Notes under the pieces: model-generated
What the model saw: only the letters and a program-made list of their open reading frames with translations
What the model was told of the DNA's origin: nothing
Database searches by the model: none
DNA from: a virus
Taxonomy: Duplodnaviria > Heunggongvirae > Uroviricota > Caudoviricetes
Reading direction: 5' to 3' (one strand)
Length of the DNA stretch: 19,661 bases
Virus record (IMG/VR): IMGVR_UViG_3300014631_000001
Span: 1-19,661 of that record
Shown here: piece by piece, positions 1 through 16,600 of the stretch
Position numbering within the stretch: position 1 is the first letter of the stretch
Layout of the letters: each line of letters opens with the position of its first letter
Program-made: the position numbers and the translations under genes

Positions 1-282
1 GCTCACTATGCCGTCTCACCGAGAGAACTACTTCAGCTGCCGTTGGCCATGTTTTGGATGTTGAGTCGAAACATTGATCGTCTCCGGGCTGAAGAGGATG
101 TCCGTAGTTTCCAGGTGGCAAGAGTCGCCCAGGCAGATGCTGATAGCGGCAAGGCGTTCATGGAGGGTTTGCAACACCGTATTGGAAGACCAGTCGTTAC
201 CGATAAAGTCTACGATCCAAGTTATGCGAAAGCAGACCCCGACGCCAAAGAGCAACTGATGAAAATTTTTGGCGCAGGATGA
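1..282 (+). CDS. Tail assembly chaperone, C-terminal (lambda GT/T-like) portion; 5'-truncated by the window edge
   Basis: The frame of ORF 43..282 is open from base 1 (AHYAVSPRELLQLPLAMFWMLSRNIDRLRAEED...). It sits immediately before the tape measure gene, the canonical position of the chaperone T domain. Confidence 0.6.
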   Translation, partial: AHYAVSPRELLQLPLAMFWMLSRNIDRLRAEEDVRSFQVARVAQADADSGKAFMEGLQHRIGRPVVTDKVYDPSYAKADPDAKEQLMKIFGAG

Positions 283-289
283 CAAGGGA

Positions 290-3200
290 ATGTCTGACAA
301 CGTAGAGTTTATTCTGTCGCTGGACGATAAAAAGTTCACCGCGGCAATCGACCGGGCGGGAAAACTGCTGGTCAGTTTTGGCGAGAAGGCCACAAAGCCA
401 GCCCAAAAAATCGCAACACTTGAGCGCTCTCTTGGTTCCGTCGCCGGGATTTTGGGGACGCTCGACAAAAAGCTGGAATCCGTCGCCAATGGTCTTCAAG
501 ACCTGGGCGCCGGTTTCGAGCTTGTCTCTAAAGCAATGCGCGACACCAGACAAGAGTTGGTGACGTTCAATGCCAACCTCAAAACCTACACCACACGCAT
601 TGATGCAGCCGACAAAGCCACGAAGGGGTTTCATCATTCGCTGCAGGCTGTTCAATCTGAGCTGAGTGATTTCTCCGATTGGGCTAATCACGCTGGTCGT
701 GCGGCCTCATCATTTAGCCACGAGGTCAAAGAAGCCAACACCGCCACCTCTGGCATGAACACGCGATTGTCCAACTCCAGCAAGAAAATGGAGAATTGGG
801 CTGCATCATCTACTAAAGCCGCTACCCAGATGAAAAAGGTTGTGGCGGAAATGGATGCGCTAATCAACCGCCAAAGAGAATTGGGCAATCTAAGAGCTGA
901 TGTACGTGGCCCTGGCCGCGGCGGTTCTGGTGATTCAGGCGGTGGATCTGGTCGTGGCGGTCGCCATTCCAGCGGTGGGCTGATGGACGGCATGAAAGGC
1001 AACATCTTCATGCTGGGTGAAATTGGTGATGCTGCATACACCGTCAAGGAGATGCTTTTCGGTTGGCAGGAGCCGATTGTAGAAGCGGCTGCCCAGATGC
1101 AGAAGATGCGCATCTTGCTTGAAGGTATGAATAAAGAAGCTGCCAACCCTAAATTGGCTGCTACCAATGACATGAACTACATCGTGAACATGGCTAAAAC
1201 AGCCCCGTTTGCTATGGAAGCGTTGACTGACGCGTTCGTTAAGTTCAAGTCAGCTGGCATCGATCCTGCCAATGGCTCGCTGAAGTCTCTCGTTGACTCT
1301 GTGGCGCGATTTGGTGGCGATAGTGAGTTGTTGAAGCGCGCAGCTGTAGCAATCCAGCAGATGTCCGGTAAGGGCGTTATTTCGATGGAAGAGCTGCGTC
1401 AGCAATTAGGTGAAGCGGTTCCTACCGCGATGCAGGCAATGGCAGATTCTGCAGGTGTCACCATGGGTCAACTGACCAAGGCGATTTCTACCGGTACGGT
1501 GTCGGCCAAACAGGGGCTGGAGCTGCTATTTCAGGGGCTTGATGCACAAAGCCGTGGCTCAGCTGAGAATCTGATGCAAGCTTACACTGGCGCGCTGGCT
1601 CAATTACAGACCTCGTTCACTCTATTTGCCGATCGCATAGGTAAAGCAGGATACCTCAACTCAATCACCAATGCCTTCAAAGAGCTGTCCACCTACATGA
1701 ACAGCACCGATGGCAAAGTGTTTGCGCAAGACCTTGGCGAAGGGCTTTCCAAAGCTGTGGATGGCCTGATGGATATGGCGAAGTGGGCGGAGCGGAACAA
1801 AGAGCTTCTGTTAACACTTGGCCAGGTCGCGCTTGGTATGGTGGGGTTCAAGGTTCTCAAAGGAACTATTTCAGGTGTAGCCACAGCTGGCGCCGAGATG
1901 GGCGGTGGTCTGAAAAAGGCATTTGAGGTTGTTAATGGAGCCGGTGCTAAAACCATTGGTGCAATTGGCAAAGTCATTACCTCAATCAGAACGTTCGGCA
2001 CTACTGCGACTCTGATCATTGGCGTAGGTGAAGCAATCAAGATGGTTCGCGCCGCTTGGCTCGCTTTTTCAGCTGTAGTTGTCGCAAATCCAGTTGGCGC
2101 AGCTATTACAGCTATCGCTATCGCGGTAGGTGGCCTGATTGCCGTCATGTCTTCTCTGAGAGATAAAACAGCGGAGACTGTTGCCGAGATTCGTAAAATC
2201 CCGGAAGCAATGACTGCGGCGCAGCGTTCTCAAATGACTGCCCGCGCAAGTGAACTGGATCGCAAAAACGCGCTGGATCAGCAGACGCTGGATATGGTAT
2301 CGAGCGGCAAAATGTCTGGTGTCGGCGTTGACACCAAACTTATTCAAGACCGTTTAGCCAGAAACAAAGCCGAATCAACAATGCTGAAAGAAACCATCGG
2401 CATGGGGGATAAAGCTCAATACGAGAACCTGGCGCGGGACATCGTCACCAAACGCCTTGAAGACGTAGACAATGGCATCAAAGCAGGTATGGCGAAGTAC
2501 AGTACCACCAGCCTGAAAGATGCGCGCAACAAGCGCACCGTTCTCTCTCAAGATCAGAAGATGTCGCCGTCTGAGAAGAGTGCGCAGCTGGAAGCGATTA
2601 ACAAAGCCGACCGAGATGCCCATCTGAAGCCATTCTTAGAAGGAGCAGACAAGACTCAGAAAATCGTTGATAACCTTGGGCAAGAAGTCGTTCGCATCAG
2701 CAAATCGCTGGAAAACCCAGCCCTAAATGAAAGCGACCGTTCCCGACTTCAAGGGCAGCTGAATGGGCAATCTCAGGCATTCAGCACTGCGCAAGATTCT
2801 CTGAAAGGGCTTCAAGAGCAGATTAAGAACATCCGCGAGCAATCCGGCAAGGGCTTGCAGATGCTAGATGGCTCTTATTACACCGGTGTTGGAGGTACCA
2901 AAAAGCAAGATGACCGTCTGAACTCGCTGTTTGTTAATTCCCAGCTCGGTACTGGTAAGCAAACTAGAATGAACCCAGACGGCACAATCATGCGTGACAT
3001 TGCCGGTGATGCTGTGATGGGCGATGCCCAGCTAAAGGCCAACACGAAGTTGCGATCTATCTACGGCGAAACCATCAAGATGGAGCAACTTACCGCAGAC
3101 CAGCGCGAGAAGATTTCTTCCATCCTGACCGCGGCAAAGCTGAAAGATGAGCAAAAAGCCCAGCGTGCAGCTGAGCGAGCGGGTAAATCCGCTGAATCAG

Positions 3201-4870
3201 CGGCTAAGCGTGAGGAGAGTGCGCGTCAAAAGGCAATTAAAGCCAATGAGACGTGGATCGGAAAAGCGGAGCAGATGGCCGGCCAGCTGGGGCTGTCATC
3301 GAAAGCGAGCGTTGAGTTCGACCAGAACATTCAGGAAGTCACTAAGCACCTGACTGAGATGGCTAACGCAGTGCCAAGCGATACGCTTTCCAAGGGGATG
3401 ATCGACAACGCCCAAACCATGCTTGCGTTCATCAACCAGAACAAAAACGCCTACTCCAAGCGACTCAATCAAGACGCTGCCGAGCAAAGCATTACCAAGT
3501 TCGCGCCGATGGTCAACAAGGTGGTTAATTCCGGCTACACCCCGGATTATCAGTCTGCGGCGGCCGAGTGGAATAAGAAGTTTAACGAAAGCCTGGCTTA
3601 CCTGCAAAGTCAGTCGAAGAACGCTCAAGACCAGGGCATGAAAGGGGTGTACGACCGTGCAATCTCACAAATGCTGGCTGGCCGAAATAAAGCGTTTATT
3701 GCAGAGGTTGGCACATCTCAGCAGAAGTTGGCGCAGGAGTACAGCGATGTAGCCTCGCAAATGGAATCTGTGTGGACGAGCTGCTTCGAAAATCTGACTG
3801 ATAAGCTGACCGAGTTCGTTAAAACCGGCAAGTTCAGCATCGCTGATTTTGGTGATTACATCTTTGACGAAATGTTGAAGGTTAGCACCAAAGCACTGGT
3901 TGTTGAGCCGCTTATGCAGTCGCTGGGCATGGGTACAAACTCAGGAGCCAGTTGGGGCGATAAGCTGTCGGGTGCCAAAGATGCGGTTATGGGGAGCTTC
4001 ACCAAAACCCAGCAATCAGGCTCGCCAGTAGAGGCAATGTCTTCACCAGCCAGCACCGGTAACGACTCTGGCAGCATGTTTGATGGGCTAAAGAACTCCT
4101 TCAAGTCACTGACCACATCCGTATCAGATCTGGCGTCATCAGGTTTGAAAAGCCTGAAAGATGGCTTTAACGAATTGACGGGCAGCACCAAAAACTCGAC
4201 TTCAGCGGTAACGCAGAATGCAGTCTCTACCCAAGAGGCGACTTCTGCAACGCGTGGGTTCACTTTGTCAGCAAGCACGGCTGTAACTGCGATCGGCGCG
4301 ACGATTTCAGCGTTGGGCGCTGCGACAGGCAATAAGTGGATGGGGTATGTAGGGGCGGCCGCGAGCATTATGGGGTTGGCATCATCTGCGTATGGCGCGA
4401 TGTCCTCTGCCGGTTGGACAGGAAACTCGGCCAGCACGGTGCAGGATGGAACCAAGGGTCTTCAGGTCAAGCCAAACGCCAGTCAGTTCCAGGTAACTGC
4501 ACACGCTAAGGGTGGGGTGTTCGGTCCAGACGGTGTGGTTCCTCTCAAAAAGTATGCCAAAGGCGGTATCGCTTCATCCCCGCAACTTGCCTTGTTTGGC
4601 GAGGGCAGTCACAAAGAGGCGTATGTGCCACTACCAGACGGCCGTTCGATCCCGGTGACGTTTACTGGCGGTGGCGAGGGTGCAGGCGGCGACAGTGTGG
4701 CGATTTCTATCACTGTTCAGAATTACGGTGACGGTAGCAGCAAGTCATCTGAGAACTCGGACAACGGCTCTCAGTGGAACGATATGGCTCGCAAAGTTAA
4801 GGCGGTCGTGCTTGACACACTGACCGACGAGAGCAGACCGGGCGGCATGTTAAGCAGCACAAGCAAATAA
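290..4870 (+). CDS. Tail tape measure protein
   Basis: Very long Ala/Gly/Ser/Lys-rich helical ORF. It has a tape-measure N-terminal motif (AIQQMSGKGVISMEELRQQLGEAVP) and a lambda H-like C-terminus (HAKGGVF...AKGGI...FGEGSHKEAYVPL). The ATG at 290 is preferred over 269 because it follows the upstream stop (280-282) and purine-rich SD-like sequence. Confidence 0.93.
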   Translation: MSDNVEFILSLDDKKFTAAIDRAGKLLVSFGEKATKPAQKIATLERSLGSVAGILGTLDKKLESVANGLQDLGAGFELVSKAMRDTRQELVTFNANLKTYTTRIDAADKATKGFHHSLQAVQSELSDFSDWANHAGRAASSFSHEVKEANTATSGMNTRLSNSSKKMENWAASSTKAATQMKKVVAEMDALINRQRELGNLRADVRGPGRGGSGDSGGGSGRGGRHSSGGLMDGMKGNIFMLGEIGDAAYTVKEMLFGWQEPIVEAAAQMQKMRILLEGMNKEAANPKLAATNDMNYIVNMAKTAPFAMEALTDAFVKFKSAGIDPANGSLKSLVDSVARFGGDSELLKRAAVAIQQMSGKGVISMEELRQQLGEAVPTAMQAMADSAGVTMGQLTKAISTGTVSAKQGLELLFQGLDAQSRGSAENLMQAYTGALAQLQTSFTLFADRIGKAGYLNSITNAFKELSTYMNSTDGKVFAQDLGEGLSKAVDGLMDMAKWAERNKELLLTLGQVALGMVGFKVLKGTISGVATAGAEMGGGLKKAFEVVNGAGAKTIGAIGKVITSIRTFGTTATLIIGVGEAIKMVRAAWLAFSAVVVANPVGAAITAIAIAVGGLIAVMSSLRDKTAETVAEIRKIPEAMTAAQRSQMTARASELDRKNALDQQTLDMVSSGKMSGVGVDTKLIQDRLARNKAESTMLKETIGMGDKAQYENLARDIVTKRLEDVDNGIKAGMAKYSTTSLKDARNKRTVLSQDQKMSPSEKSAQLEAINKADRDAHLKPFLEGADKTQKIVDNLGQEVVRISKSLENPALNESDRSRLQGQLNGQSQAFSTAQDSLKGLQEQIKNIREQSGKGLQMLDGSYYTGVGGTKKQDDRLNSLFVNSQLGTGKQTRMNPDGTIMRDIAGDAVMGDAQLKANTKLRSIYGETIKMEQLTADQREKISSILTAAKLKDEQKAQRAAERAGKSAESAAKREESARQKAIKANETWIGKAEQMAGQLGLSSKASVEFDQNIQEVTKHLTEMANAVPSDTLSKGMIDNAQTMLAFINQNKNAYSKRLNQDAAEQSITKFAPMVNKVVNSGYTPDYQSAAAEWNKKFNESLAYLQSQSKNAQDQGMKGVYDRAISQMLAGRNKAFIAEVGTSQQKLAQEYSDVASQMESVWTSCFENLTDKLTEFVKTGKFSIADFGDYIFDEMLKVSTKALVVEPLMQSLGMGTNSGASWGDKLSGAKDAVMGSFTKTQQSGSPVEAMSSPASTGNDSGSMFDGLKNSFKSLTTSVSDLASSGLKSLKDGFNELTGSTKNSTSAVTQNAVSTQEATSATRGFTLSASTAVTAIGATISALGAATGNKWMGYVGAAASIMGLASSAYGAMSSAGWTGNSASTVQDGTKGLQVKPNASQFQVTAHAKGGVFGPDGVVPLKKYAKGGIASSPQLALFGEGSHKEAYVPLPDGRSIPVTFTGGGEGAGGDSVAISITVQNYGDGSSKSSENSDNGSQWNDMARKVKAVVLDTLTDESRPGGMLSSTSK

Positions 4871-4880
4871 GGAGTGGGTA

Positions 4881-5213
4881 ATGTCAAGGACGACATTTAC
4901 CTGGTTCCCGTTGTTTGATTCCGAGAAGGAGGTGAAGCCGGAAGTAACCCGGCTCGCCTTCAACGAAGGGTATGAGCAACGTGTAACCAGTGGTTTGAAC
5001 TGGCGCAAATTCAGCTGGGATCTGCAATTCCAGGGGACACGAGCTGAAATGCAGGAGATCGACGACTTCCTGTATGCGCGCGGAGGGGTGGAGTCATTTA
5101 ACTGGACTTCACCAAACGGGCAGAGGGTTGTAGTGGTGAGCGATAGCCATAAGGTCAAAAACTCACGAGGGTACGCGACCTTGACCACAACTTTCCGCCA
5201 GGTATTTGAGTAA
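4881..5213 (+). CDS. gpM: Minor tail protein, lambda gpM-like (distal tail)
   Basis: 110 aa with FNEGYEQRVTSGLN and IDDFLYARGGVESFNWTSP motifs; AAGGAG SD; lies directly after the tape measure gene. Confidence 0.88.
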   Translation: MSRTTFTWFPLFDSEKEVKPEVTRLAFNEGYEQRVTSGLNWRKFSWDLQFQGTRAEMQEIDDFLYARGGVESFNWTSPNGQRVVVVSDSHKVKNSRGYATLTTTFRQVFE

Positions 5214-5261
5214 CAAAAGCCCCAAAGGATGGGGGCTAATCTTCAAGGATGAAGACAGAAA

Positions 5262-5960
5262 ATGGAATCTATTGCATCGAGTATTCAGTCACTCCAACCG
5301 AGTGCGCTGATTGAAGTGTTTGAGCTGGATATGTCGGTAACTACCAGCGGTGGAAAGCTGTATTTTCATGCAGGCACCAATGAACTTTCTGAACCAATTA
5401 TTTGGCAGGGGGTAACCTATAAACCATGGCCAATTGCGGCATCTGGTTTCGATAAAAGTGGCCAGGGCAAGTTACCGCGACCAAAACTGCAGGTGAGTAA
5501 CCTCGATGGCATTATTTCGGCTGAAGTGCAGTCGAATGAGGATTTGATCGGCTGTAAGCTGATTCGTCGAGTCACGCTCGCTCGTTTTTTAGATGCTGCC
5601 AACTTTACTGAGGGCAACTCTACAGCTGACCCGAACCAGCATTTTGCCGATGAGATGTGGTACATCGACCAGAAGACTTTTGAGGATCGCGAGATTGTTG
5701 AGTTTGAGCTTGCCTCAGCCTTCGATCTAATGGGGGTTATGCTACCCAACCGCCAGATCGTCAAAAACTCATGCCAGTGGCGGTATCGAAGCGCTGAGTG
5801 CGGTTATACCGGTCCCTACTTTGACAAAAATGATGCGCCAACCAAACTGGCCAGCGCCGACTATTGCACTAAGCGATTGTCATCGTGCCGTGCTCGGATT
5901 AATTACTTTGCCAATGGCATCATTGCATTTGGCGGGTTCCCCGGAGCAAACCGCGCATGA
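5262..5960 (+). CDS. gpL: Minor tail tip protein, lambda gpL-like
   Basis: IEVFELD start, YFHAGTN, RRVTLARFLDAANF, and a C-terminal four-Cys cluster (CQWRYRSAECGY...CTKRLSSC) ending FGGFPG. Confidence 0.92.
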   Translation: MESIASSIQSLQPSALIEVFELDMSVTTSGGKLYFHAGTNELSEPIIWQGVTYKPWPIAASGFDKSGQGKLPRPKLQVSNLDGIISAEVQSNEDLIGCKLIRRVTLARFLDAANFTEGNSTADPNQHFADEMWYIDQKTFEDREIVEFELASAFDLMGVMLPNRQIVKNSCQWRYRSAECGYTGPYFDKNDAPTKLASADYCTKRLSSCRARINYFANGIIAFGGFPGANRA

Positions 5961-6733
5961 TGAAGAATGAAATGATGAATGCAAAGTTGCTTGGCGCTAT
6001 GCGCCTTGCCGCTTTGCAGGAATATCCAAATGAGGCTTGCGGCCTGCTTGTTAATACAAGAGCGAACAAGTATGAGTTAATTGTTTGCCGAAACGTCGCT
6101 GATGATCCTGAAAACTATTTTGTCATGCACGCCGAAGACCAAATTGCAGCTGAGAGAGCTGGCGAGGTGGTTGGTGTTTGGCATTCGCATACTGACGAGG
6201 ATAATCAGGCGTCTGAGGCAGATATGTCTGGTTGTGAAGCATCAGAGTTACCGTGGTTTATTATAAACATCAGCAAAAACTACAATCCTGAAATTGATGC
6301 AGAGTATCGTTTTAGTGATGTAAATGTGATCAAGCCTTCTGGATTTGAAATGCCTTATGAGGGAAGACCGTACGCATTTGGGGTATTTGATTGCTGGCTG
6401 CTGTGCCGAGATTATTTAAAGCGTGAGAAAAATGTGGCTATTGGCGTCTGCCCTGAGTTGCATATCCCATCGTGGTGGGAAAGGGGGATTGATATTTTAA
6501 ACGACAACTTCCAGTCGCAGGATCTTATAAGATTGCCACCGGGAACCCCACGTCAAAATGGCGACATTTTCTTCATGCAGTTAGCATCGCAAGTTCCTGA
6601 TCACTGTGCAGTTTACATTGGCGATGGTATGATATTGCATCATCAAATGGATAGATTGAGCTGCAAAGCAATTTATGGCGGGATGTACGAAAAGCACACT
6701 ACGCACCATTTGAGACACAAGGATTTAATGTGA
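5957..6733 (+). CDS. gpK: Tail tip assembly protein, lambda gpK-like (JAB/MPN plus NlpC/P60 domains)
   Basis: EYPNEACGLL...HSH...SEAD JAMM motif, then FGVFDCWLLCRDY and HCAVY...ILHH NlpC/P60 catalytic residues; ATGA overlap with L. Confidence 0.92.
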   Translation: MMKNEMMNAKLLGAMRLAALQEYPNEACGLLVNTRANKYELIVCRNVADDPENYFVMHAEDQIAAERAGEVVGVWHSHTDEDNQASEADMSGCEASELPWFIINISKNYNPEIDAEYRFSDVNVIKPSGFEMPYEGRPYAFGVFDCWLLCRDYLKREKNVAIGVCPELHIPSWWERGIDILNDNFQSQDLIRLPPGTPRQNGDIFFMQLASQVPDHCAVYIGDGMILHHQMDRLSCKAIYGGMYEKHTTHHLRHKDLM

Positions 6734-6742
6734 GGGAAGACA

Positions 6743-7372
6743 ATGAGTGAAATGGCTATGGATAAGCCTGAACTTGTCACTGTCGAATTAGGTGGAGTTT
6801 TAGGTAAGAATTTTGGCAAGGTCCATCATGTTGCTGCAAATACTGTCCGGCGCGCAGTAAGTATTATTGACTGTAATCGCCCTGGTCTCGTAACCTGGAT
6901 GAAGATGAACGCTAAGAAATATCAGAAGTATCATATTTATGTCGAGCGTCATGATGGAGCAGTCTACGATATGAGTGAAGCCGAGTTCCAAATGGAAAAT
7001 AACGGAAGCATGAAATCGATCAGAATCACACCGATTTATCGTGGCTCTGGCTCAAAGGTTGTCGGTGCAGTTCAGGTTGTTGTTGGTGTTACTTTGATGG
7101 TAGTGGCAGTGTTTGCTTCGTCAGTAACCGGTGGTGCTTCATTGGCAATGTTTTCTGCTGGTTTTGCTATGGCCTTCGGTGGTGTCGCAGCGCTCTTGTC
7201 CAAGCAGCCATCAAATAAAATGACGACCGTTGATAATAAAGACTCGTACTACTTTGATGGGCCGCAAAATACAGTATCTCAAGGCAACCCCGTACAGCTC
7301 ATTTACGGTAAAGAGATTTTAGTCGGCTCCCAGATTGTCAGCGTCAAGATGTCAGTTGAGCAGATGCTTTAG
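6743..7372 (+). CDS. gpI: Tail assembly protein, lambda gpI-like
   Basis: VELGGVLGKNFGK N-terminus, hydrophobic Gly/Ala middle segment, SYYFDGPQNTVSQGNPVQLIYG...VGSQIVS C-terminus. Confidence 0.9.
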   Translation: MSEMAMDKPELVTVELGGVLGKNFGKVHHVAANTVRRAVSIIDCNRPGLVTWMKMNAKKYQKYHIYVERHDGAVYDMSEAEFQMENNGSMKSIRITPIYRGSGSKVVGAVQVVVGVTLMVVAVFASSVTGGASLAMFSAGFAMAFGGVAALLSKQPSNKMTTVDNKDSYYFDGPQNTVSQGNPVQLIYGKEILVGSQIVSVKMSVEQML

Positions 7373-7525
7373 TACATAACCACTACGCCAGGCTTAGACG
7401 TTTGCGGTGGTGGCTAAGGCAAATTAAGTAAAACAGTTGGGCATTGACAGGAGGTTGATGCCCAACCAAGCGCCGGCAGGATGCCAGCGATCACACATAA
7501 ATTGCACCAAAAAGGGAGATTTTCG

Positions 7526-10500
7526 GTGGCAACTGTTAAAGAAAGACGCCTGCTCGCCGGTTCTGGCGGTGGCAGCAAGGGCGGCGGTTCCGCGCACACG
7601 CCTGTAGAAGACAAAGATAATGTTCAGTCGCGATCACTCGCCTCAATCCTTGACCTTCTTGGTGAGGGAAAGATTGGTGGATTGATCAATGGCGGACAGT
7701 CAATTTTCCTCGACAATGTCCCAATTCTAAACCCGGACGGCACCAGTAACTTCAATGGGGTTAACTGGTGGTTTCGTGATGGAACCCAGAATCAGGCAGT
7801 GATCGAGGGCTTTGATGCGGTTGAAACACCGCATGATGTTGGCGTCCAAATCAAGCTGTCTACCCCTCGTACCATTCAGATCGACAACGATGATTCTGAC
7901 CAGGTGCGTGTCATTATGATGTTCCCGAAACTGACCAAAACGGATCAGAAGTCGGGCGACACCCACGGTACGACCGTTCAATTCCAGTTTGAGATCGCAT
8001 ACGGCACTACCTCGTTTAAGCCAATTAAACCGCAAGGTTATGCGTCACATGTCGTTACACTGAGCAAAAAGTCCAGCGGCAAACACTATCGTGAATATCT
8101 TTTTGATCTGCCCAAGCCAGGCTCAAACTATCGCATTCGCGTAAGCCGCGTGACCGCTGATAGCACCACTGACTATATCCAGGATCAGACTTGGCTCAGT
8201 CAGTACGGTGAAATCGTCAGTACAAAACTTAACTACCCGAACAGTGCGCTTGTTGGTCTTAAAATCGACTCGCAGCAATTTGGTAGTTCTGTGCCGGCGC
8301 GTTCCTACCTAGTCTCGGGTATGGAAATCCGCGTTCCGTCCAACTATGACCCGGTGCTTGGTACGTATTCGGGAGATTGGGATGGAACCTTCCGTTTAAT
8401 GGTATCTGACAATCCTGCCTGGATTTTGTACGACCTGCTCACCAGTAAGCGCTATGGCTTGGGGGAGTACGTCACTGAATCAATGATCAACATCGGCCAG
8501 CTTTACCAGATTGGGCGCTATTGCGATGAGCTGATCAATGATGGATTCGGGGGCAAGGAGAAGCGCTTCGCAATTAACACCGTAATTAACTCACGCGGTG
8601 AGGCGTACAAGGTTCTTCAGGACATCGTATCGACTTTCCGGGGGATGATTTTCTGGGCTGGTGGCATGGTTAACATCATGCAGGATAGCCCAAGTAGCCC
8701 GGTCATGCAGTTCAGTGCCGCGAACATCATTGGCAAAGTATCCTACAAAGGCTCTTCTCGCAAAGACCGCGCCACTGTAGCTCTCATCACTTACAACGAC
8801 AAAGATGACCTGTACAAGCAGAACATCGAGTACGTTGAAGATGAAGAGGGTATTAAGCGTTTTGGTGTACGTAAAACTGAATCAGTAGCTTTCGGTTGTA
8901 CCAGCCGTGGCCAGGCACACCGTGTTGGGCTTTGGACGCTTTACAGCAACCGCATGGAAACAGATCTGATCACCTTCACCTCTGGTATGGACGCATCGTT
9001 ACTCATGCCTGGCGAACTGGTGAAACTGCAAGATAAGTTCCGATCAGGGAAACGAAATTCCGGGCGCCTGGTGAACTACACCAAAAACAGCATCACACTC
9101 GACGCCTCTGTAAAACTGACTAAAGCCGGGAACACCGTCTCTTTCCTGAGTGCTAAAGGGAAGATGATTGATCGCGACCTTATTGAAGGCGCTGGCGAAT
9201 ACACTGTTGTCACCTTCAAGAAGGCATTAACTGAAGAAGAATACCCAGCGATTATGGGGATCTGGTCAGTCATTGAGCCTAATCTGGAGCCAATGCTGCT
9301 GCGTGTGCTGGCCGTTAACCAGAATGAGGAGAAGGGCGCCTTTGACATCGTGGGTGTGCAGCACAACCCTACGAAGTTTAACGCTATCGATGAAGGGGCG
9401 ATTCTCGTACCGTCGAAGACAACAATTCTAGACCCGACTTTCTCAACTCCAGAAAATCTGCAGGTGACGGAAGGGACATTCGTTTCCTCCCCGGGCAACC
9501 TTTCGGTAAAACTGATGGTGAGTTGGGAGGGCAAGTCGCCTTCGTATGTGCTGCGTTACCGTCGTTCCGATGTTGTTGAAGATTGGGTGACAACAGAGGT
9601 TAAGACTGAGCAGTACGATATTTTAAACGCTGCTGAGAATGGCATGTATGACATCGAACTGTACTCGATTTCAGCCACAGGCAGACGTTCTAGCGTCATT
9701 TCCATGGTGTACACCACTCTTGGAACGATGATGCCACCAGATGCGCCCACGCTTCTCACTGCGATCGGGGATTATCGCGTCAACGTTCTGGCATGGCAGC
9801 TGCCGGGCACAATTGACATCGACAAAATCAACATTTATGCCTCTCGCACCAATGATCTCACCACCGCGTCTCTGATTGCAGCGGTTACATCGACAACATT
9901 CACCCATAGCGGGCTGGGTGACGATGAAACGTGGTTCTATTGGGTGCGTGCTGTCAACAAGCGCGGCATGGTAAGTCAGCCAAACTCTTCTCTGGGAACC
10001 GAAGCCACAACGAAAGATGTGCTCTCTTTTTTAAAAAACAAAATCACTACTTCCGAATTAGGGAAGGAGCTTCTTGCTGATATTGATGGGAAAGCAACAG
10101 CTATCGATGTGGCAGCGCTTGAAGTGAAGGTGGATAAAGGGGTTGATAGCCTTTCTCAATCAGTCAGTGAGATGAAAGGATCGCTTACGGGTATGGAGCA
10201 AGCCCAGACAGACCTTCAGACCAGCGTGGGAGAGACACAACAAAAGGTAGAGGGCGCCCTGGCGGAGATGGATGAAGCCGCCGCCAAAGTCTTAAATCTG
10301 CAAGAGACGGTGAATGAGCAAAGCGAAGCAGTGGCAACCACTGTTGAGGCGGCTCAGGCTGCTCTGGACAACAGCAAGACGCTTATTGCTGAAGAGCAAA
10401 AAGCTCGTGTGGAAGCAGACTCTGCCCTGGGGCAAAAAATCGACACTATGGAATCTGTGGTCGATAGCGGTAAAGCCAGTATCAACGAGATGCAGAAAAC

Positions 10501-11872
10501 TGTCTCTGACGTAGAGAACTCTGCTTCTCAGTGGACCTCTAGCCTTGAAGCTAACGCGATAGCTAATATTGATCTAGCGCTTCGCCAGGAAGAAAACAGA
10601 CATCAGCAGTCTGCCACTAATGCCCAAATCAATTCTGATCAGCAAGCTATTGCGAATGACGTTTCGGCTGTTTCGAAGCGAGTCGAAGAGATGAAGGCTG
10701 AGATTGGCGAAGATATTGCGACCAAGCTGACTGAGGAAAGAGAGACTCGCGCGAGCGCAGATGAAGCGGTGTCCCGCCGAATTATTCAACTTCAGGCCGA
10801 CATTAATGATGACATTAAAGCTTCATTAACTACTGAGCAACTGGCTCGGGCTGACGGTGATAGTGCGCTATCAAGGCAAATCACCTCTTTGGAAGCACAG
10901 GTAAATAACGACATTAGGGCTGCCCTAGATACGGAAGCAAAAACCAGAGCAGACAGTGATGGCGCGCTGTCCTCACAAATTACTGCTTTGAGTGCCCAAG
11001 TAAACGATCAGGTTAAAGCACAGCTGTCTACAGAGATGCAGGCGCGTGCAGACGCTGATTCGGCGCTGGGTAGCCGAATCGACTCTCTTAAGGCCCAAAC
11101 CTCTTCTGACATCAGCGCTGCGGTAGCTTCAGAAACTCAGGCTCGAGCCAGTGCCGACTCCGCGCTTGGTAGCCGCATCGATAACTTGAAGGCCCAAACA
11201 GCCACCGACATCAATGCGGCCATAGCTACAGAAACAATAGCCAGAGCAAATGCTGATTCAGCGATGGCAGGTAATATTTCTGGGTTACAGGCTCAAGCAA
11301 ACAATTTAGCTGCTTCGATTAATAGTGAGGCCACGGCCAGAGCAAATGCTGATGCGGCTCTCAGCCAGAGAGTTGATACGGTTAACGCTAAGACCGATTC
11401 GGTTTCGGCTACCGTGCAGCAAACTACACAGGCTGTGGCTGATGTTAATTATAAAGTGTCTGCTTCATGGACATTGAAAATGGAAACATCGGCTTATAAC
11501 GGAGTGAAGTATGCCGCGGGCATTGCTTTAGGTATTGATGGCTCCGGTGTGTCGCAATTTTTAATTCGTGCGGATCGATTTGGGCTGGTTAACTCTGTTG
11601 ATGGCAATGTGACAACGCCTTTCGTAATTGAAAATAGCGTTGCTTATATGAACGGTGCCTATATTAAGAACGGCACTATCGATAACGCCAAGATCGGAGA
11701 TCTACAGTCCACCAACTATGTTACAGCTAATGCTGGCTGGCGTATCTCAAAAAACGGAACCTTTGAGATGAATGGCAACAGTGGTGGTGCAGGGCGGATG
11801 GTTATAAATAATAACCGTATAGAGGTGTATGACGAGAACAACGTCTTAAGGGTGAGGATGGGGCTGATGTAA
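7526..11872 (+). CDS. gpJ: Central tail fibre / tail tip protein, lambda gpJ-like
   Basis: GSGGGSKGGG N-terminus, LNYPNSALVGLKIDSQQF, SDNPAWILYDLLTSKRYGLG, FN3-like repeats, long coiled coil, and a C-terminal YAAGIALGID...FLIRADRF...IKNGTIDNAKIG region. The GTG at 7526 has a GGGAG SD 7 nt upstream and is preferred to the ATG at 7481. Confidence 0.92.
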   Translation: MATVKERRLLAGSGGGSKGGGSAHTPVEDKDNVQSRSLASILDLLGEGKIGGLINGGQSIFLDNVPILNPDGTSNFNGVNWWFRDGTQNQAVIEGFDAVETPHDVGVQIKLSTPRTIQIDNDDSDQVRVIMMFPKLTKTDQKSGDTHGTTVQFQFEIAYGTTSFKPIKPQGYASHVVTLSKKSSGKHYREYLFDLPKPGSNYRIRVSRVTADSTTDYIQDQTWLSQYGEIVSTKLNYPNSALVGLKIDSQQFGSSVPARSYLVSGMEIRVPSNYDPVLGTYSGDWDGTFRLMVSDNPAWILYDLLTSKRYGLGEYVTESMINIGQLYQIGRYCDELINDGFGGKEKRFAINTVINSRGEAYKVLQDIVSTFRGMIFWAGGMVNIMQDSPSSPVMQFSAANIIGKVSYKGSSRKDRATVALITYNDKDDLYKQNIEYVEDEEGIKRFGVRKTESVAFGCTSRGQAHRVGLWTLYSNRMETDLITFTSGMDASLLMPGELVKLQDKFRSGKRNSGRLVNYTKNSITLDASVKLTKAGNTVSFLSAKGKMIDRDLIEGAGEYTVVTFKKALTEEEYPAIMGIWSVIEPNLEPMLLRVLAVNQNEEKGAFDIVGVQHNPTKFNAIDEGAILVPSKTTILDPTFSTPENLQVTEGTFVSSPGNLSVKLMVSWEGKSPSYVLRYRRSDVVEDWVTTEVKTEQYDILNAAENGMYDIELYSISATGRRSSVISMVYTTLGTMMPPDAPTLLTAIGDYRVNVLAWQLPGTIDIDKINIYASRTNDLTTASLIAAVTSTTFTHSGLGDDETWFYWVRAVNKRGMVSQPNSSLGTEATTKDVLSFLKNKITTSELGKELLADIDGKATAIDVAALEVKVDKGVDSLSQSVSEMKGSLTGMEQAQTDLQTSVGETQQKVEGALAEMDEAAAKVLNLQETVNEQSEAVATTVEAAQAALDNSKTLIAEEQKARVEADSALGQKIDTMESVVDSGKASINEMQKTVSDVENSASQWTSSLEANAIANIDLALRQEENRHQQSATNAQINSDQQAIANDVSAVSKRVEEMKAEIGEDIATKLTEERETRASADEAVSRRIIQLQADINDDIKASLTTEQLARADGDSALSRQITSLEAQVNNDIRAALDTEAKTRADSDGALSSQITALSAQVNDQVKAQLSTEMQARADADSALGSRIDSLKAQTSSDISAAVASETQARASADSALGSRIDNLKAQTATDINAAIATETIARANADSAMAGNISGLQAQANNLAASINSEATARANADAALSQRVDTVNAKTDSVSATVQQTTQAVADVNYKVSASWTLKMETSAYNGVKYAAGIALGIDGSGVSQFLIRADRFGLVNSVDGNVTTPFVIENSVAYMNGAYIKNGTIDNAKIGDLQSTNYVTANAGWRISKNGTFEMNGNSGGAGRMVINNNRIEVYDENNVLRVRMGLM
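10736..11400 (+). repeat. About seven tandem 99-bp (33-aa) coiled-coil repeats within J
   Basis: Units start at 10736, 10835, 10934, 11033, 11132, 11231 and 11327 (last interval 96 bp). Consensus ExxARAxADSALxxxIxxLxAQxxxDIxAAxxx. The exact 18-mer GCCAGAGCAAATGCTGAT occurs at 11240 and 11336. Confidence 0.88.
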
Positions 11873-11883
11873 CGAAAATTAGT

Positions 11884-11954
11884 CCCTCTTTGCAATTAAA
11901 GGGGGGCATAGTTAAAAACCCCTTTTAAATCGTACAGTTCGTATTGATGAGGGG
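11884..11954. other. Stem-loop cluster between J and the tail fibre gene
   Basis: CCCTCTTT (11884-91) pairs with AAAGGGGG (11898-905). AAAGGGG can alternatively pair with CCCCTTT (11919-25). CCCCT (11919-23) can also pair with AGGGG (11950-54). Confidence 0.55.
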
Positions 11955-11961
11955 CAAAAAA

Positions 11962-12000
11962 TAGGTAATCATCTACCTACTTGAAAGTTTGTCTTTCATT
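11962..12000 (+). promoter_or_regulatory. Palindromic site TAGGTA-N6-TACCTA plus TTTGTCTTTCATT motif upstream of the tail fibre gene
   Basis: Perfect 6-6-6 inverted repeat at 11962-11979 and a 13-mer at 11988-12000; both recur upstream of the lysis cassette. Confidence 0.6.
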
Positions 12001-12041
12001 GTTTGCTGAAGCAAGGATAGCTGAAGCGTTAAGGAGAAAAT

Positions 12042-15000
12042 ATGTGGTACAGGGAAGGTACTCTCACCTTGGTCAAAGATTCCCGCGCCGTCACTGGCGA
12101 AGGGACTAATTGGTCGAAAACGGAAAATGGCGTATTGCCGGGAATGATCTTGCTGGGGCCGGACGGCTCAGTACATGAGATCAAATCTGTCCAATCAAAC
12201 ACAGCGCTGACTCTGGTAGAAGCCTATACCGGCGAAACAGCTGTTGATGCGCCTTGTCGTATAATCACGACCTATGAAGGCGATATTAGCCAGTTCAGTG
12301 CGCGATTTTCAGCGATGCTACAACGCATGACCACCGATTCCGGGGTAATTCGAGCGTGGTTAACTTCTGGAAAAACAGCTAATTTAATCACTGAAACCGG
12401 CGAACAGATTACTATTAAATCGCTTTTGCAGATCGTAGACGAACATGACAAAAGCATGTCATGGTTTGAGAGTAATCAAGCCGCAATTGATGCCGCTGGA
12501 GACAAGGCTAAGGCCGCTTCTCAGAGTGCTGCGGAGGCCGCGGTCTACCAAAGCGCCACCAAAACCTCCGAAGCCAATGCCTTAGCCTCTGCAAATAAGG
12601 CGGAAGCCTCTGCAGGCGCAGCTGCCGTCTCGGAGGTAAATGCCGGCACATCTGCCTCAAATGCAAAAGCTTCGGAGGCAAGCTCTGAAGCGTCGGAGGC
12701 AAGTGCTGCTAGATCAGCAAAAGCTGCGTCCCTTTCTGAAGCTAATGCACTTAACTCGATGAATGCTGCGGCAAATTCTGCAGCCAATGCAGAAAATTCA
12801 GAAGCAAACGCACATTCATCTGAGGTTGTTGCTGTTAAGGCCAAAGAGGACGCTGTAAGCTCTGCTTCTGCCGCAAGTAGATCGGCGTCCGAGGCCGAAG
12901 TTTCAGAAGCCAATGCGCAGATGTCAGAGCAGAGTGCTAAAGCAGCGACTGAGTCAGCTGCAGCCTCTCAATTAGCCGCAGCAGGCTCTGAAGCACAGGC
13001 AATAGCTTCAGAGCGTAACGCTTCTGCTTCTGCAGCTGCGGCCAAAAGCTCTAAAACCAATGCAGGAAGATCTGAGGCTGCAGCGGAACAGGCTGCCAAT
13101 AATGCCCTTACTTCTGAAAAAGCTGCATCCCGAGCAGAAACCGCAGCCGCAACCTCCGAGGTTAACTCAAAATCCTCCGAGTCGAACGCTGTAACGGCGG
13201 CGGTAAATGCAGCCGCTTCTGAAGCATCAGCAGTTCATGCCAAAGTTGACGCGGAAAATGCAGCATCGGTGGCGACTGCCAAAGCAGAATCTGCTTCAGC
13301 CTCAGAGGTTAGTGCTGCTGACTCTGCTTCACGCGCTGAGGCCGCCGCTTCTAAATCCTTAAATGGTGGGCAGCCTTACTCCGAAATACTGACATCAATC
13401 TCTGCGCTAGGTGATAGCACCGCCAGTGATCAGTTCATGTACCTTTCTGACAATAACCAGATGTCTCTTGCCCCAATTGCGGTATTTATGCGTGATCTGC
13501 TGTCTAAAGCAAATGCAGACGCTCTCTTGGACGAGATCCAGGGCACAGACAAGACCTTTTTGTTTGCTGACTCAGCTAAAGCAGTTGCGTTACCTGGAGA
13601 TCTTGTGGCCCCAGGCAGTGCTGTCTTTAACAAAGGGGTTACTGCGGGATATACAGGTGGCCGGATGTTCGCCCAGCAGTACGGCACTGATGCTGCTTTT
13701 TATCAAGACATCACCACTACCGGGACAAGCGAATTTCACCCACTTGTGAAGCAGAGAGTCACCGTAGGCGATAAATCATGGTCTGGTTCGTTCGGATGGT
13801 TGATCAACTCTATGGAGTGGCATCTGCTATTGATTGACAAGACCGCGCAGGAGCAGCGAAATTTTGTCTTCAGAACGACTGGCGAATTTACAGCTCCTGG
13901 TCGAATTCTGCCTGGTGATTATGCCAACTTCGATGTTCGCTATCTTGGATTAAATGCCAATGCTGTCAGCGCGACCAAACTGCTTTCGGCACGAAAAATT
14001 GCTGGGAAGGCATTTGATGGCACATCCGATGTTGTGTTGACCGCAGATGATGTTGGTGCCGTAACTTCGGGTCTTACAGCAACCGTTATTGATGATACTG
14101 GCGTACCATGGAATGGGAAAACCGGTGTTTATAACGGTCAACGTTCAGGTGATTCTGTTTGTATCGCGCATTTCAATACCAATACCGGAAGTTGCCCATC
14201 ACTTCAGCTCAAGGCCCACTATAAGAATGGCGGTCTCTTCTACCGTTCATCTCGTGACCAGTTCGGTTTTGAGCAAGGATTCGAACAGATTTACACCACC
14301 AGCTTTAAACCCTCACCAGCAGATATAGGGGCATTGCCAAATAATGGTGGCGTTATGGCTGGGCAAATGGGTGTTGTGTCGTATGACGATGAAGCGCTTT
14401 ACTTGCAGCGCAGATCGGCTAACCAGGCGCTTTATCTGCGAGGGAGAGCAGAGAATGGTGCTGCGCGCTGGTATGTCGGAAACGGAAGTTCTGGCGCTGA
14501 TGATGTAACATTAGGTAACTATATTCATAATACGACACTAACCCTTAATGAAAGTGGAGTGTTTTCAAACCGTGGATATACGGCTAATGGATATTTTACC
14601 GCCCAAGGTTCTGGTACGACAACCCTGATAATGGGCACTGGCGGTGGGGACGCGTTTCTAAAAAACTCCACTTCAGGCATGTATCTTCAGCTTAAAAACA
14701 ACGGCCTCCTGTCCTACAGCGACCAACCGATTTACCATTCCGGCAACAAGCCAACGCCTGCAGAGCTTGGGGCTTACCCAACTTCGGGTGGCGAATTATA
14801 TGGGGAGGTTATAACAACTAGTCTGAACGGCTACCGCATTAAAGCTGGAAACTATGGAATGTTTATCCGAAATGACGGAGCAAACACCTATTTCCTTTTA
14901 ACCAATGCTGGGGATCAAAATGGTGGCTGGAATAACCTCCGACCCTTCTATTTCGAAAATAGTAGTGGAGTAGCGTATCTCGGGCAGGGTGTTAACGTAA

Positions 15001-15671
15001 GCGGTTTTGCGAACTTTAATGGTTTAGCGACTCTTAATCAGGGCTTAAATGTTTATGGCAGCGCCAACTTTAATGGTGCTATGAATATTGCCGGGAGCAT
15101 AACTATACCCACTAATCCAGGCGCATGGATCAATATGCGAACTGGCTCCGCTCTACAGGGTACCGTTCCGTTGGCAACAGGCAATGCGGCTCCTATAGTT
15201 CGTCAGGAACACCCTGACAGGGATTTCGTATTGGGAGGCTTGGGTAACTCGCAATTCGGCATTTATGGTTTCGAGAGATCCCGAACAGAAAATGGCTACG
15301 ACTACTGCGCATATCTTGACAATGGCGGCAATTGGACAGCTTCTGGGTATGGTAGCTTTAACGATGTTTACATCCGTTCTGACCGTCGTAATAAGCGCAA
15401 CATTAAAAAGATTGATGGCGCGCTGGATAAGCTAGAAAAAATCGACGGCGTCCTGTATGAGCTGCAGGGTATCAATGGCTACTCCCAATCCGCTGGTCTA
15501 GTGGCTCAACAATTTCAGGACGTGCAGCCGGAGCTGGTTACATCCGATATCGATCACATTAGTAATGAAGAGCGTCTGCGTCTGAATTATAACGGCGTTA
15601 TCGGGATGCTGGTTGAAGCGGTTAAAGAGCTGCGCGCTGAAGTTCGAGAAATTAAAGAGGCAATCGCATGA
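12042..15671 (+). CDS. Side (long) tail fibre with C-terminal intramolecular chaperone (Peptidase S74-like)
   Basis: MWYREGT N-terminus, Ala/Ser-rich stf-like coiled coil (about 12480-13350), fibre modules (ARKIAGKAFDGTSDV, PWNGKTGVY, KPxPAxxGA knots, WNNLRPF), and FNDVYIRSDRRNKRNI...LNYNGVIGMLVEAVKEL chaperone; AAGGAG SD. Confidence 0.9.
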   Translation: MWYREGTLTLVKDSRAVTGEGTNWSKTENGVLPGMILLGPDGSVHEIKSVQSNTALTLVEAYTGETAVDAPCRIITTYEGDISQFSARFSAMLQRMTTDSGVIRAWLTSGKTANLITETGEQITIKSLLQIVDEHDKSMSWFESNQAAIDAAGDKAKAASQSAAEAAVYQSATKTSEANALASANKAEASAGAAAVSEVNAGTSASNAKASEASSEASEASAARSAKAASLSEANALNSMNAAANSAANAENSEANAHSSEVVAVKAKEDAVSSASAASRSASEAEVSEANAQMSEQSAKAATESAAASQLAAAGSEAQAIASERNASASAAAAKSSKTNAGRSEAAAEQAANNALTSEKAASRAETAAATSEVNSKSSESNAVTAAVNAAASEASAVHAKVDAENAASVATAKAESASASEVSAADSASRAEAAASKSLNGGQPYSEILTSISALGDSTASDQFMYLSDNNQMSLAPIAVFMRDLLSKANADALLDEIQGTDKTFLFADSAKAVALPGDLVAPGSAVFNKGVTAGYTGGRMFAQQYGTDAAFYQDITTTGTSEFHPLVKQRVTVGDKSWSGSFGWLINSMEWHLLLIDKTAQEQRNFVFRTTGEFTAPGRILPGDYANFDVRYLGLNANAVSATKLLSARKIAGKAFDGTSDVVLTADDVGAVTSGLTATVIDDTGVPWNGKTGVYNGQRSGDSVCIAHFNTNTGSCPSLQLKAHYKNGGLFYRSSRDQFGFEQGFEQIYTTSFKPSPADIGALPNNGGVMAGQMGVVSYDDEALYLQRRSANQALYLRGRAENGAARWYVGNGSSGADDVTLGNYIHNTTLTLNESGVFSNRGYTANGYFTAQGSGTTTLIMGTGGGDAFLKNSTSGMYLQLKNNGLLSYSDQPIYHSGNKPTPAELGAYPTSGGELYGEVITTSLNGYRIKAGNYGMFIRNDGANTYFLLTNAGDQNGGWNNLRPFYFENSSGVAYLGQGVNVSGFANFNGLATLNQGLNVYGSANFNGAMNIAGSITIPTNPGAWINMRTGSALQGTVPLATGNAAPIVRQEHPDRDFVLGGLGNSQFGIYGFERSRTENGYDYCAYLDNGGNWTASGYGSFNDVYIRSDRRNKRNIKKIDGALDKLEKIDGVLYELQGINGYSQSAGLVAQQFQDVQPELVTSDIDHISNEERLRLNYNGVIGMLVEAVKELRAEVREIKEAIA

Positions 15672-16144
15672 CAGTCGCTGCTGGTTGGGTAGGTTCAAGC
15701 ACAGTTGGCGAAACTGGACAGCGTTGGATGTCGGCGGCCGGGCCGGCACTTCAACTAGGCGTACCATTTTGGATGAGTACGCTCCCTGGTAGGAGCACTT
15801 CAATCTCATTCAGTGTTACAGGTGCCTATGGTGCAGATGCCACTGGTTTATATTATGGCTACAACTCAGTATTAGGTATTGGGTATGTTTCAGGTAACTA
15901 TTACGGAAGACAGATTGTTGGTTTTTTTACCAAAGTTCCTACTGTTAATGATCAGCAGACAGTTACTTGCTTGATGCTCGCAGGCGCAATGTCTGGATCG
16001 GTAAGTTTGATAGTGTTTGGCAGTCGGTACCAGTTTGATTTCAATCCGACATATGGAGGGTACATTAATGCTGACGTTAATCTTGCAACAAATATGGCAA
16101 CTACTTTTAATCAAGGGACGCCAACATTGACTATAACCACTTAA
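15668..16144 (+). CDS. Tail fibre tip adhesin with T-even gp38-like N-terminal attachment domain
   Basis: The N-terminus GWVGSSTVGETGQRWMSAA...PFWMS..GRS matches the three-Trp gp38 attachment motif; ATGA overlap with the fibre gene. Confidence 0.75.
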   Translation: MTVAAGWVGSSTVGETGQRWMSAAGPALQLGVPFWMSTLPGRSTSISFSVTGAYGADATGLYYGYNSVLGIGYVSGNYYGRQIVGFFTKVPTVNDQQTVTCLMLAGAMSGSVSLIVFGSRYQFDFNPTYGGYINADVNLATNMATTFNQGTPTLTITT

Positions 16145-16155
16145 TAATCCTTTCT

Positions 16156-16176
16156 AAGCGCCTACGGGCGCTTTTT
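16156..16176 (+). terminator. Rho-independent terminator after the tail fibre/adhesin genes
   Basis: AAGCGCC-TACG-GGCGCTT stem (UNCG loop) followed by a T run. Confidence 0.8.
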
Positions 16177-16177
16177 A

Positions 16178-16221
16178 GTAGGTAGCTAGCTACTTACATT
16201 TGTCTTGCATTTTGTTAAGAT
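16178..16221 (+). promoter_or_regulatory. Putative lysis-cassette promoter: palindrome GTAGGTAGCTAGCTACTTAC upstream of an extended -10
   Basis: Near-perfect inverted repeat at 16178-16197, TTTGTCTTGCATT at 16199-16211, and TGtTAAGAT at 16213-16221. Confidence 0.6.
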
Positions 16222-16259
16222 CCCTGAATACCGAAATTTGACTTTTCACGGAGGAAAAA

Positions 16260-16586
16260 ATGTCAAATGAGATGGGAGGCGTGACGCCAGATCAGGTCGA
16301 GCGAATTGCCCAAATTGTCGCCAGAGAGGTCATGGGGAGTCTGCGAAAGGATCTCCGTGATGATATTGGTGCAGAAGTAAAGGCCCAACTAGGAGCCTAT
16401 TTTGGGGACATGACAGCCGCTCAGCACAGCATCCAGCATTCGAATCTGGAAAAGCTACTGACCCGGTTGGACAGCATCTCAAGTGGCTTCTTTGGTGGCG
16501 TCATTTCCAAAATCACATCCATCTTGACCGCTGCTTTGCTTCTAGGACTGGCGGCATATGGCGTTAAAAATGGTTTCGGCAACTAA
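16260..16586 (+). CDS. Putative holin/lysis regulator (single C-terminal transmembrane helix)
   Basis: 108 aa with one hydrophobic segment (GGVISKITSILTAALLLGLAAYGV); GGAGG SD; first gene before the endolysin. Confidence 0.55.
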   Translation: MSNEMGGVTPDQVERIAQIVAREVMGSLRKDLRDDIGAEVKAQLGAYFGDMTAAQHSIQHSNLEKLLTRLDSISSGFFGGVISKITSILTAALLLGLAAYGVKNGFGN

Positions 16587-16600
16587 GAGGAAGGCTAAGG

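Follow-up and report, generated by a model that had tools for sequence, protein, structure and literature searches.

The stretch of DNA analysed here, referred to below as the window, comprises 19,661 bases and is the beginning of a complete virus record of 110,229 bp that has terminal repeats (IMG/VR record IMGVR_UViG_3300014631_000001). The replicon belongs to the group of SSU5-type phage-plasmids, and the window is its tail and lysis end. Results of our analysis indicate that the leaders of the late genes of this replicon, specifically, carry conserved hairpins with A(N)GGAX loops, and that the sequence rules and spacing of these hairpins match those of CsrA sites. As judged by sequence, about half of the virion and lysis genes start behind conserved hairpins that resemble CsrA docking sites. 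The best explanation for them would be the action of host CsrA on two sites per leader, a proposal whose probability we place somewhat short of even.

Enrichment and conservation of GGA-loop hairpins at late gene starts

Sites were defined, following the work on RsmE, as ANGGAX hexaloops, AGGAX pentaloops or ARGGA pentaloops on stems of 4 bp or more (PMC4005645), and were counted at the starts of 25 late and 118 other genes of the complete genome. Such loops were found at 12 of the 25 late starts, compared to 1.6±1.3 when only the 5' flank was shuffled, and at 8 of the 118 other ones (late vs. other, Fisher p = 3e-6). Among the late genes located outside the window, 7 of 13 have a site (p = 7e-5). 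When the whole pipeline was repeated with a second complete genome of the group, whose L is ~72% identical, sites were present at 10 of 26 late and 3 of 112 other genes (p = 2e-6), the number for the other genes being equal to the shuffle expectation. None of 27 genes of phage lambda, which has the same tail gene order, has an A(N)GGAX site. The coding strand has 13 loops of this type with a C-G closing pair, nine of them intergenic, vs. 2.9±1.6 in shuffles and one on the opposite strand. In an energy test, in which all GGAs and the start codon were held fixed and the remainder of each leader was shuffled, GGA-loop hairpins of -4 kcal/mol or below were found in 7 of 25 late leaders vs. 1.0±0.9 in the GGA-preserving shuffles, and in 3 of 118 leaders of non-late genes vs. 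3.3 expected.

The class of GGA-loop hairpins as a whole is far above chance, although single weak stems are not. The enrichment over shuffles preserving the Shine-Dalgarno (SD) sequence, which a previous sequence-only reading of the window had proposed as a check, concerns this class and not GGA in the loop of any weak stem. Two simpler candidates for the signal were rejected, namely GGA in any weak stem, which is equally common within genes, and CAAGGAT as a recurrent enriched word (13 observed vs. 9.2±2.9 expected). Both CAAGGAT copies that had been pointed out upstream of genes I and fibre (6718 and 12012) are present, but the former lies in the coding region of K and is a relic SD. SD-positioned GGAs are, if anything, rarer in hairpins than coding GGAs. 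The chance-level frequency of weak GGA-loop stems, the lack of enrichment of CAAGGAT and the ordinary folding of one of the leaders, that of the first lysis gene (z = -0.5), would all be expected if the hairpins had no function and arose from SD content, AU-rich flanks and shared ancestry. We consider such an origin very unlikely, given that the sites exceed the flank shuffles, are concentrated at late genes, recur outside the window and in the second genome, are absent from lambda, and show the compensatory changes in stems described below.

All hairpin and CAAGGAT sequences quoted in the sequence-only reading were found at their positions. It had placed the hairpins at four gene starts, whereas their distribution proved to be wider and includes also those of TerS, portal, capsid, tail tube, G, M, and endolysin. 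Sites at the SD or start codon are present in the window at the tape-measure protein (TMP) gene, M, L, J, holin, and endolysin, and upstream of the window at the portal, capsid, a head-tail, and the tail-tube gene. The holin is named from its position alone; it is the first gene of the lysis cassette and belongs to PHROG 5093, of unassigned function. A second, stronger hairpin of the C-AGGA(U/A/C)-G type is located 17-26 nt upstream at TerS, G, L, and fibre. In the leaders of parA and of the two-gene cassette, no such GGA-loop stem was found, as had been stated before. All window features described below are on the plus strand unless indicated otherwise.

The conservation of the hairpins was analysed in 240 related loci from IMG/VR, in which orthologous starts were found by tblastn. 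Stems were compared by loop-anchored scripts, since MAFFT aligned the upstream hairpins of L of different clades out of register. The leader of L has two sites. Its upstream hairpin (hp1; 5218-5237, with the core at 5220-5234) has the arms AGCCCC and GGGGCT and AAGGA in the loop (-6.6 kcal/mol for the core and -10.8 kcal/mol for 5218-5237), and it is followed by the SD hairpin (hp2), TCTTC-AAGGAT-GAAGA (5240-5255, -4.1 kcal/mol). The GGA of hp2 is located 20 nt 3' of that of hp1 and 12 nt 5' of the L ATG at 5262, and the M-L spacer as a whole folds better than its shuffles (z = -2.9). The two-hairpin spacer persists in relatives down to ~62% L identity. The stems of hp1 differ fully per clade (AGCCCC/GGGGCT, GGCGCTGAC/GTTGGCGCC, GGTGTCCTCA/TGAGGACACC), while the GGA of its loop is retained in 22 of 25 unique family leaders, on 9 of 11 different apical stems, with a freely variable base after GGA. 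In hp2, TTCAAGGA(T/A)GAA is invariant to ~70% L identity, and TTTA-AGGGAT-TAAA is found at 62%. In the M-L spacer of one relative (L049:9945-9997), the upstream hairpin is replaced by a tandem (GGTGAT)n repeat and the SD hairpin is retained. Only when read on the minus strand, where it precedes TTTTGTTAC, does the upstream hairpin of the window (5218-5237) have a terminator-like score; it could block antisense transcripts from entering the tail operon.

Stem replacement under a retained GGA was also found at other genes with an upstream site. The fibre site of the window, AGC-AAGGATA-GCT (12010-12022), has a weak stem of 3 bp and is located 18 nt before the SD AAGGAG (12031-12036) of the ATG at 12042. 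It aligns in position with strong hairpins of relatives, which are built on at least five different stems (GACGGGC, GTGTGGGC, GATGGGC, GGTGGGC, and TCAGC), and GGA is present in the upstream loop of 21 of 30 unique leaders. The TerS site is retained in 21 of 22 unique leaders, on many different stems. In the G leader, the hairpin that follows the tail-tube gene (V-G) has a C-AGGAX-G loop and the SD has ACGGAT, and GGA occurs in its upstream loop in 20 of 25 unique leaders. Among the sites upstream of the window that involve the SD or start codon, the capsid (MCP) stem changes from tcaa/ttga to tcat/atga in relatives, the tail-tube SD is found on three covarying stems (GGAAAA/TTTTCC, GCAAA/TTTGC, and GGTAAA/TTTACC), and the portal hairpin has AUG-GAA in the loop and a 5' arm that tracks codons 3-4.

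The hairpin at the TMP start, GACA-AGGGAA-TGTC (281-294, -1.6 kcal/mol), covers the stop codon of the T open reading frame (ORF; 280-282), the SD, and the ATG at 290. In relatives of ~70% L identity and above it has the form (T)GACA-AGG(G)AA-TGTC(A), but its conservation cannot be attributed to the hairpin, since the stop, SD and start overlap the same bases. The M start is within AATGTC-AAGGAC-GACATT (4880-4897), with the ATG (4881) in the 5' arm of a C-G-closed ANGGAX hexaloop; close relatives have TGTC-ACGGAC-GACA, and in the SSU5 clade CTCAC-AAGGAT-GTGAG is present on the SD instead. The holin SD is in the loop of TTTTC-ACGGAG-GAAAA (16243-16258, -0.7 kcal/mol), which is retained as TTC-ATGGAG-GAA in 80 relatives. 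The 5' untranslated region of this gene (16215-16275) is nearly invariant in the same number of relatives, exceeding the conservation of the gene itself, and the SD hairpin together with the ATG lies within an outer helix, TTTGAC/GTCAAA; changes of codon 2 from TCA to TCG preserve the pairing as wobble. At the endolysin start, GGCT-AAGGAT-GGCT (16593-16606) holds the ATG (16601) in its loop and stem. The TMP and holin stems, from two of the four gene starts originally described, are members of the class that are too weak to serve as evidence on their own.

Taken over the relatives, stems vary while GGA stays at TerS, capsid, tail tube, G, TMP, M, L, fibre, and holin, and GGA is the commonest loop trinucleotide of late leaders (23 of 60 stem clusters vs. 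~3 expected). No sites were found at genes that overlap the preceding gene (K, I, terL, and others), and almost none in relatives whose L identity is 60% or below, where M, L, and J directly adjoin or overlap the genes before them.

The leader between I and J is not shared by the family. Three hairpins had been described in this 153-nt leader, and all three exist as local stems: J1 (7436-7466), with a 13-bp stem and a C-AGGAG-G pentaloop (-18.6 kcal/mol); J2 (7471-7489), CGCCGGC-AGGAT-GCCAGCG (-8.2 kcal/mol), which holds an ATG (7481) in frame with J; and J3 (7505-7528), CACCAAAA-AGGGAG-ATTTTCGGTG (-4.9 kcal/mol), whose loop contains the SD and whose stem includes the GTG start (7526). The whole leader has z = -3.6 vs. 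shuffles. J1-J3 and the leader itself are present only in the window's own clade (at least 97% identity), while the corresponding gap of the SSU5 clade is ~17 nt; the hairpins were therefore rejected as a family-wide feature and are a recent addition specific to the window's clade. The apex of J1, TGACAGGA(N)GTTG, is the same as that of hp1 in the M-L spacer of the SSU5 clade. The in-frame ATG at 7481 sits 45 nt before the annotated GTG, and the alternative pairing of this region (7373-7540), the J2 hairpin vs. a start-sequestering helix, resembles a switch. In the distant relatives L071, L079, and L080, the I-J gaps are 350-450 nt long, GC-rich and coding-like, and may hold a small gene or an N-terminal extension of J. 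Conservation of the stems in relatives, which the sequence-only reading had named as a test, is seen for the nine late leaders listed above in the form of changing stems with GGA kept, and not for the J hairpins and some of the loops.

Possible readers of the loops

Considered by sequence, the hairpins fit the structural and flanking rules for CsrA, RsmA, and RsmE leader sites. An ANGGAX hexaloop directly on the stem is the high-affinity CsrA/RsmE form, and an upstream high-affinity site can bring the dimer to a weaker SD site (PMC4005645). Among 59 upstream (non-SD) sites of L, fibre, and G, 55 are closed by C-G, and GGA is followed by U in 34, A in 16, C in 7, and G in only 2; the avoidance of G at this position argues against simple pairing with the anti-SD. 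The distance between the GGA of the upstream site and that of the SD is 17-26 nt at these three genes, with the median of 21, and ~23 nt at TerS, as counted on one leader. The range over which a CsrA dimer can bridge two sites is 10-63 nt, with the best spacing near 18 nt, and the distances found here are within it. The arrangement of two sites, one of them on the SD, which is usual for CsrA targets and had been invoked for these leaders, is present at L, fibre, G, and TerS, while TMP, M, and holin have the SD site only.

The reader is proposed to be a protein of the host, since the replicon has no csrA gene: no six-frame match to CsrA (PF02599) was found at E of 1 or less in this genome and five complete relatives. 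A phage-encoded CsrA-like protein, which the sequence-only reading had offered as an alternative, is excluded at Pfam sensitivity on these six complete replicons. Across the window, there was also no match at E of 1 or less to Rfam families, including those of the CsrB/RsmZ-type sponge RNAs. In the mechanism that we favour, a host CsrA dimer would dock on the upstream loop and bridge to the SD site, and the bridged protein would block the binding of the 30S subunit, as it does at glgC, hcnA, and ColE7 cel. In the plasmid-prophage state, a finite pool of CsrA could silence leaky late transcripts and so set a threshold, which would be overcome by the flood of late mRNA after induction or by a change in CsrB/CsrC. 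Both repression and activation are possible, since the binding of CsrA at J2 could instead free the GTG start of J.

The main rival is a purely cis-acting leader architecture with no dedicated protein reader, which we regard as possible, if rather unlikely. According to it, the stable GC hairpin serves to insulate the region of initiation, terminates or stabilises the mRNA segment before it, or attenuates transcription, the weak hairpin displays the SD in its loop, and the GGA-rich loops, if active, are SD-like standby sites for 30S subunits. The same two-hairpin layout is indeed found in the SSU5 clade with loops other than GGA, namely TTCG, GACC, and GCAA before M and ATGAA before the tail-tube gene; T-rich, attenuator-like tracts follow the V-G hairpin and several M-L hairpins of the SSU5 clade. 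In the window, hp1 of L and J1 are followed by no T tract on the plus strand. Moreover, hairpins with the SD in the loop are present also on the highly expressed capsid and tail-tube genes, and SDs contain GGA regardless. However, neither stability nor insulation explains the retention of GGA under stem replacement at TerS, L, fibre, and G, nor is the C-G closure of nearly all upstream sites accounted for. The scarcity of G after GGA is equally unexpected, as AGGAG pairs best with the anti-SD, and lambda, with the same gene order, has no such hairpins. Even if they act only in cis, the hairpins are a well-defined, conserved leader architecture that is absent from lambda.

The loops could also be read by another RNA-binding protein, either a late translational regulator of the phage-plasmid or a different host factor. 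The trait is specific to the family, being absent at 60% L identity or less and in lambda, most genes of the replicon have no known function, and the apex shared by J1 and the SSU5-clade hp1, TGACAGGA(N)GTTG, is longer than the minimal CsrA motif. Still, no candidate for such a protein was found, and the assumption is unnecessary, since the motif, the closing pair, the variable position and the spacing all coincide with those of CsrA and CsrB; we consider this explanation quite improbable. Improbable as well, but to a lesser degree, is an extended form of the CsrA model, in which late mRNAs are both gated by host CsrA and titrate its pool. Each late transcript would carry more than 12 CsrB-like sites, so that leaky messages would be fully silenced, while the late mRNA made after induction would soak up CsrA as CsrB does and switch on the synthesis of virions and lysis proteins in a threshold-like manner. 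The same titration would shift the Csr-controlled carbon metabolism of the host.

Some caveats concern the hairpins as such. Weak GGA hairpins (-1 kcal/mol or below) are at chance level, involving 20% of leader GGAs vs. 21% of coding GGAs. The single stems of TMP and holin are not significant alone, and the holin leader overall is not unusually structured (z = -0.5, as given above). In the minimum free energy (MFE) fold of the whole I-J leader, J1 alone takes the form described; a long-range helix competes with J2 and J3, and the region of the GTG start is paired with the 3' arm of J2. Other observations weigh against control of the late leaders by host CsrA. Several SD stems are weak (-0.7 to -1.6 kcal/mol), and GGA is present in SD sequences anyway. 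As for conservation, ~30% of unique fibre leaders have no GGA in the upstream loop, hp1 of L is devoid of it in two relatives at ~82% identity, a minority of G loops have other sequences (CAGGCAG, CATGATG), and in the SSU5 clade most hairpins before M and before the tail-tube gene have no GGA. Many sequences of the family share ancestry, and the counts of unique leaders overstate their independence. Finally, simple repression would be awkward for the capsid and tail-tube genes, which need high expression.

If host CsrA is indeed the reader, particle production and lysis of these phage-plasmids would depend on the Csr state of the host, that is, on the carbon source, the growth phase and an SOS-linked drop of CsrB/CsrC like that described for ColE7. 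The hairpins would then act post-transcriptionally as a safeguard against leaky lysis genes in a prophage present in multiple copies.

Gene map and other elements of the replicon

The nearest named relatives of the replicon, at 89% and 94% identity, are non-mobilizable ~109-kb plasmids from Enterobacter sp. CP102 and Cronobacter sp. JZ38, respectively, and the remoter ones are plasmids of ~105-115 kb from Citrobacter, Klebsiella, Salmonella, and Escherichia. Phage-plasmids of the SSU5 type are common in Escherichia, Klebsiella, Salmonella, Enterobacter, and Cronobacter and can carry resistance genes. Gene starts in the window agree with the annotations of related plasmids. The T ORF (58-282) is followed by the genes of TMP (start at 290), M (4881), L (5262), K (5957), I (6743), and J, whose GTG start at 7526, downstream of the in-frame ATG at 7481, matches the annotated starts in the pCP102 and JZ38 plasmids. 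Next are the fibre gene (12042), the fibre adhesin gene (15668), and the lysis cassette (16260, 16601, and 17293), which encodes the product of the PHROG with no assigned function, the endolysin, and an Rz-like spanin; the two-gene cassette and parA come after it. The head genes occupy 100,577-110,053 of the circular genome. The reading frame of T is open from base 1 of the window (1-282), and it follows the chaperone gene G (genome 109,736-110,053) across the record ends. A G gene followed by a T ORF is the layout of the usual G/GT frameshift arrangement.

A search for the sigma-70 consensus on the plus strand within the tail operon gave two matches, 6178 and 15171. Both are inside coding regions and neither adjoins a hairpin, and sigma-70 promoters within this operon were rejected. 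Two further strong hairpins follow genes of the window: one just after J (11882-11907), with the loop CAAT and no T tract, and GCGCCTACGGGCGC followed by TTTTT after the fibre adhesin gene (16156-16173), which is a typical intrinsic terminator.

The genome contains also 14 perfect palindromes TA(A/G)GTA-N-TAC(C/T)TA, 13 of which are intergenic, located 18-149 nt upstream of operon starts across the replicon. Two of them are in the window (11962-11979 and 16179-16196), and the 12 others include those at 40334, 51016, 62634, 73036, 75323, 87024, 95707, and 105921. In relatives, an extended -10-like sequence, TGTGATATAAAT, comes after the palindrome that precedes the lysis cassette. The palindromes are probably operator or promoter elements used by a phage regulator and are distinct from the GGA hairpins. 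At genome position 75,323-75,471 (L166:1324-1472), the palindrome and an AT-rich -10-like stretch precede a structured leader of ~100 nt with two CsrB-type hairpins, cgtcAGGACgacg and tgctccATGGACggagcg, which is located before a gene of 103 aa with no known function.

Comparison with known Csr-controlled systems

CsrA is known as a regulator of chromosomal genes of metabolism, motility, and virulence. To our knowledge, one plasmid lysis gene, ColE7 cel, is under its control. Our search of full-text literature found no report in which CsrA is connected with phage-plasmids of the SSU5 type or with the late operon of a phage. In the ColE7 system, CsrA represses cel via the loop of an intergenic terminator hairpin and the SD, and the levels of CsrB/CsrC drop after SOS induction (PMC2896534). 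The likeness to the system described here concerns the extrachromosomal location, the polycistronic operon, and the combination of a stem-loop site with an SD site, to which the V-G, M-L, fibre, TerS, and lysis-cassette leaders may be compared. The differences are that cel is a single gene, for which control was shown by gel shift and with csrA mutants, while about a dozen virion and lysis leaders are predicted to be concerned here, and that the holin leader has the SD site only.

The leaders of glgC of E. coli and hcnA of Pseudomonas share with the late leaders the A(N)GGAX hexaloop or pentaloop and the pairing of a high-affinity upstream hairpin with a copy at the ribosome-binding site. Unlike the phage genes, they are chromosomal genes of metabolism or secondary metabolites. 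Moreover, many of the phage sites are AGGAX pentaloops, which are of intermediate affinity for RsmE.

The closest resemblance in sequence is to the sponge RNA CsrB. The E. coli K-12 CsrB sequence, which served as a positive control, contains 22 GGAs, and its main unit is c-AGGA(U/A/C)-g on a stem of 4-6 bp. Its loop words are CAGGATG (six copies), CAGGAAG (two) and CAGGACG (one), and CAGGAGG does not occur. The same unit is present in the phage hairpins V-G, J1, J2, and hp1 of the M-L spacer in the SSU5 clade. The CsrB unit acttcAGGATgaagt and word TCAAGGATGA are nearly identical to the SD hairpin of L, and the word UCAAGGAUGA equals the core of that hairpin. While the sites of CsrB are packed in one non-coding RNA, those of the phage-plasmid are distributed over the leaders of its late mRNAs.

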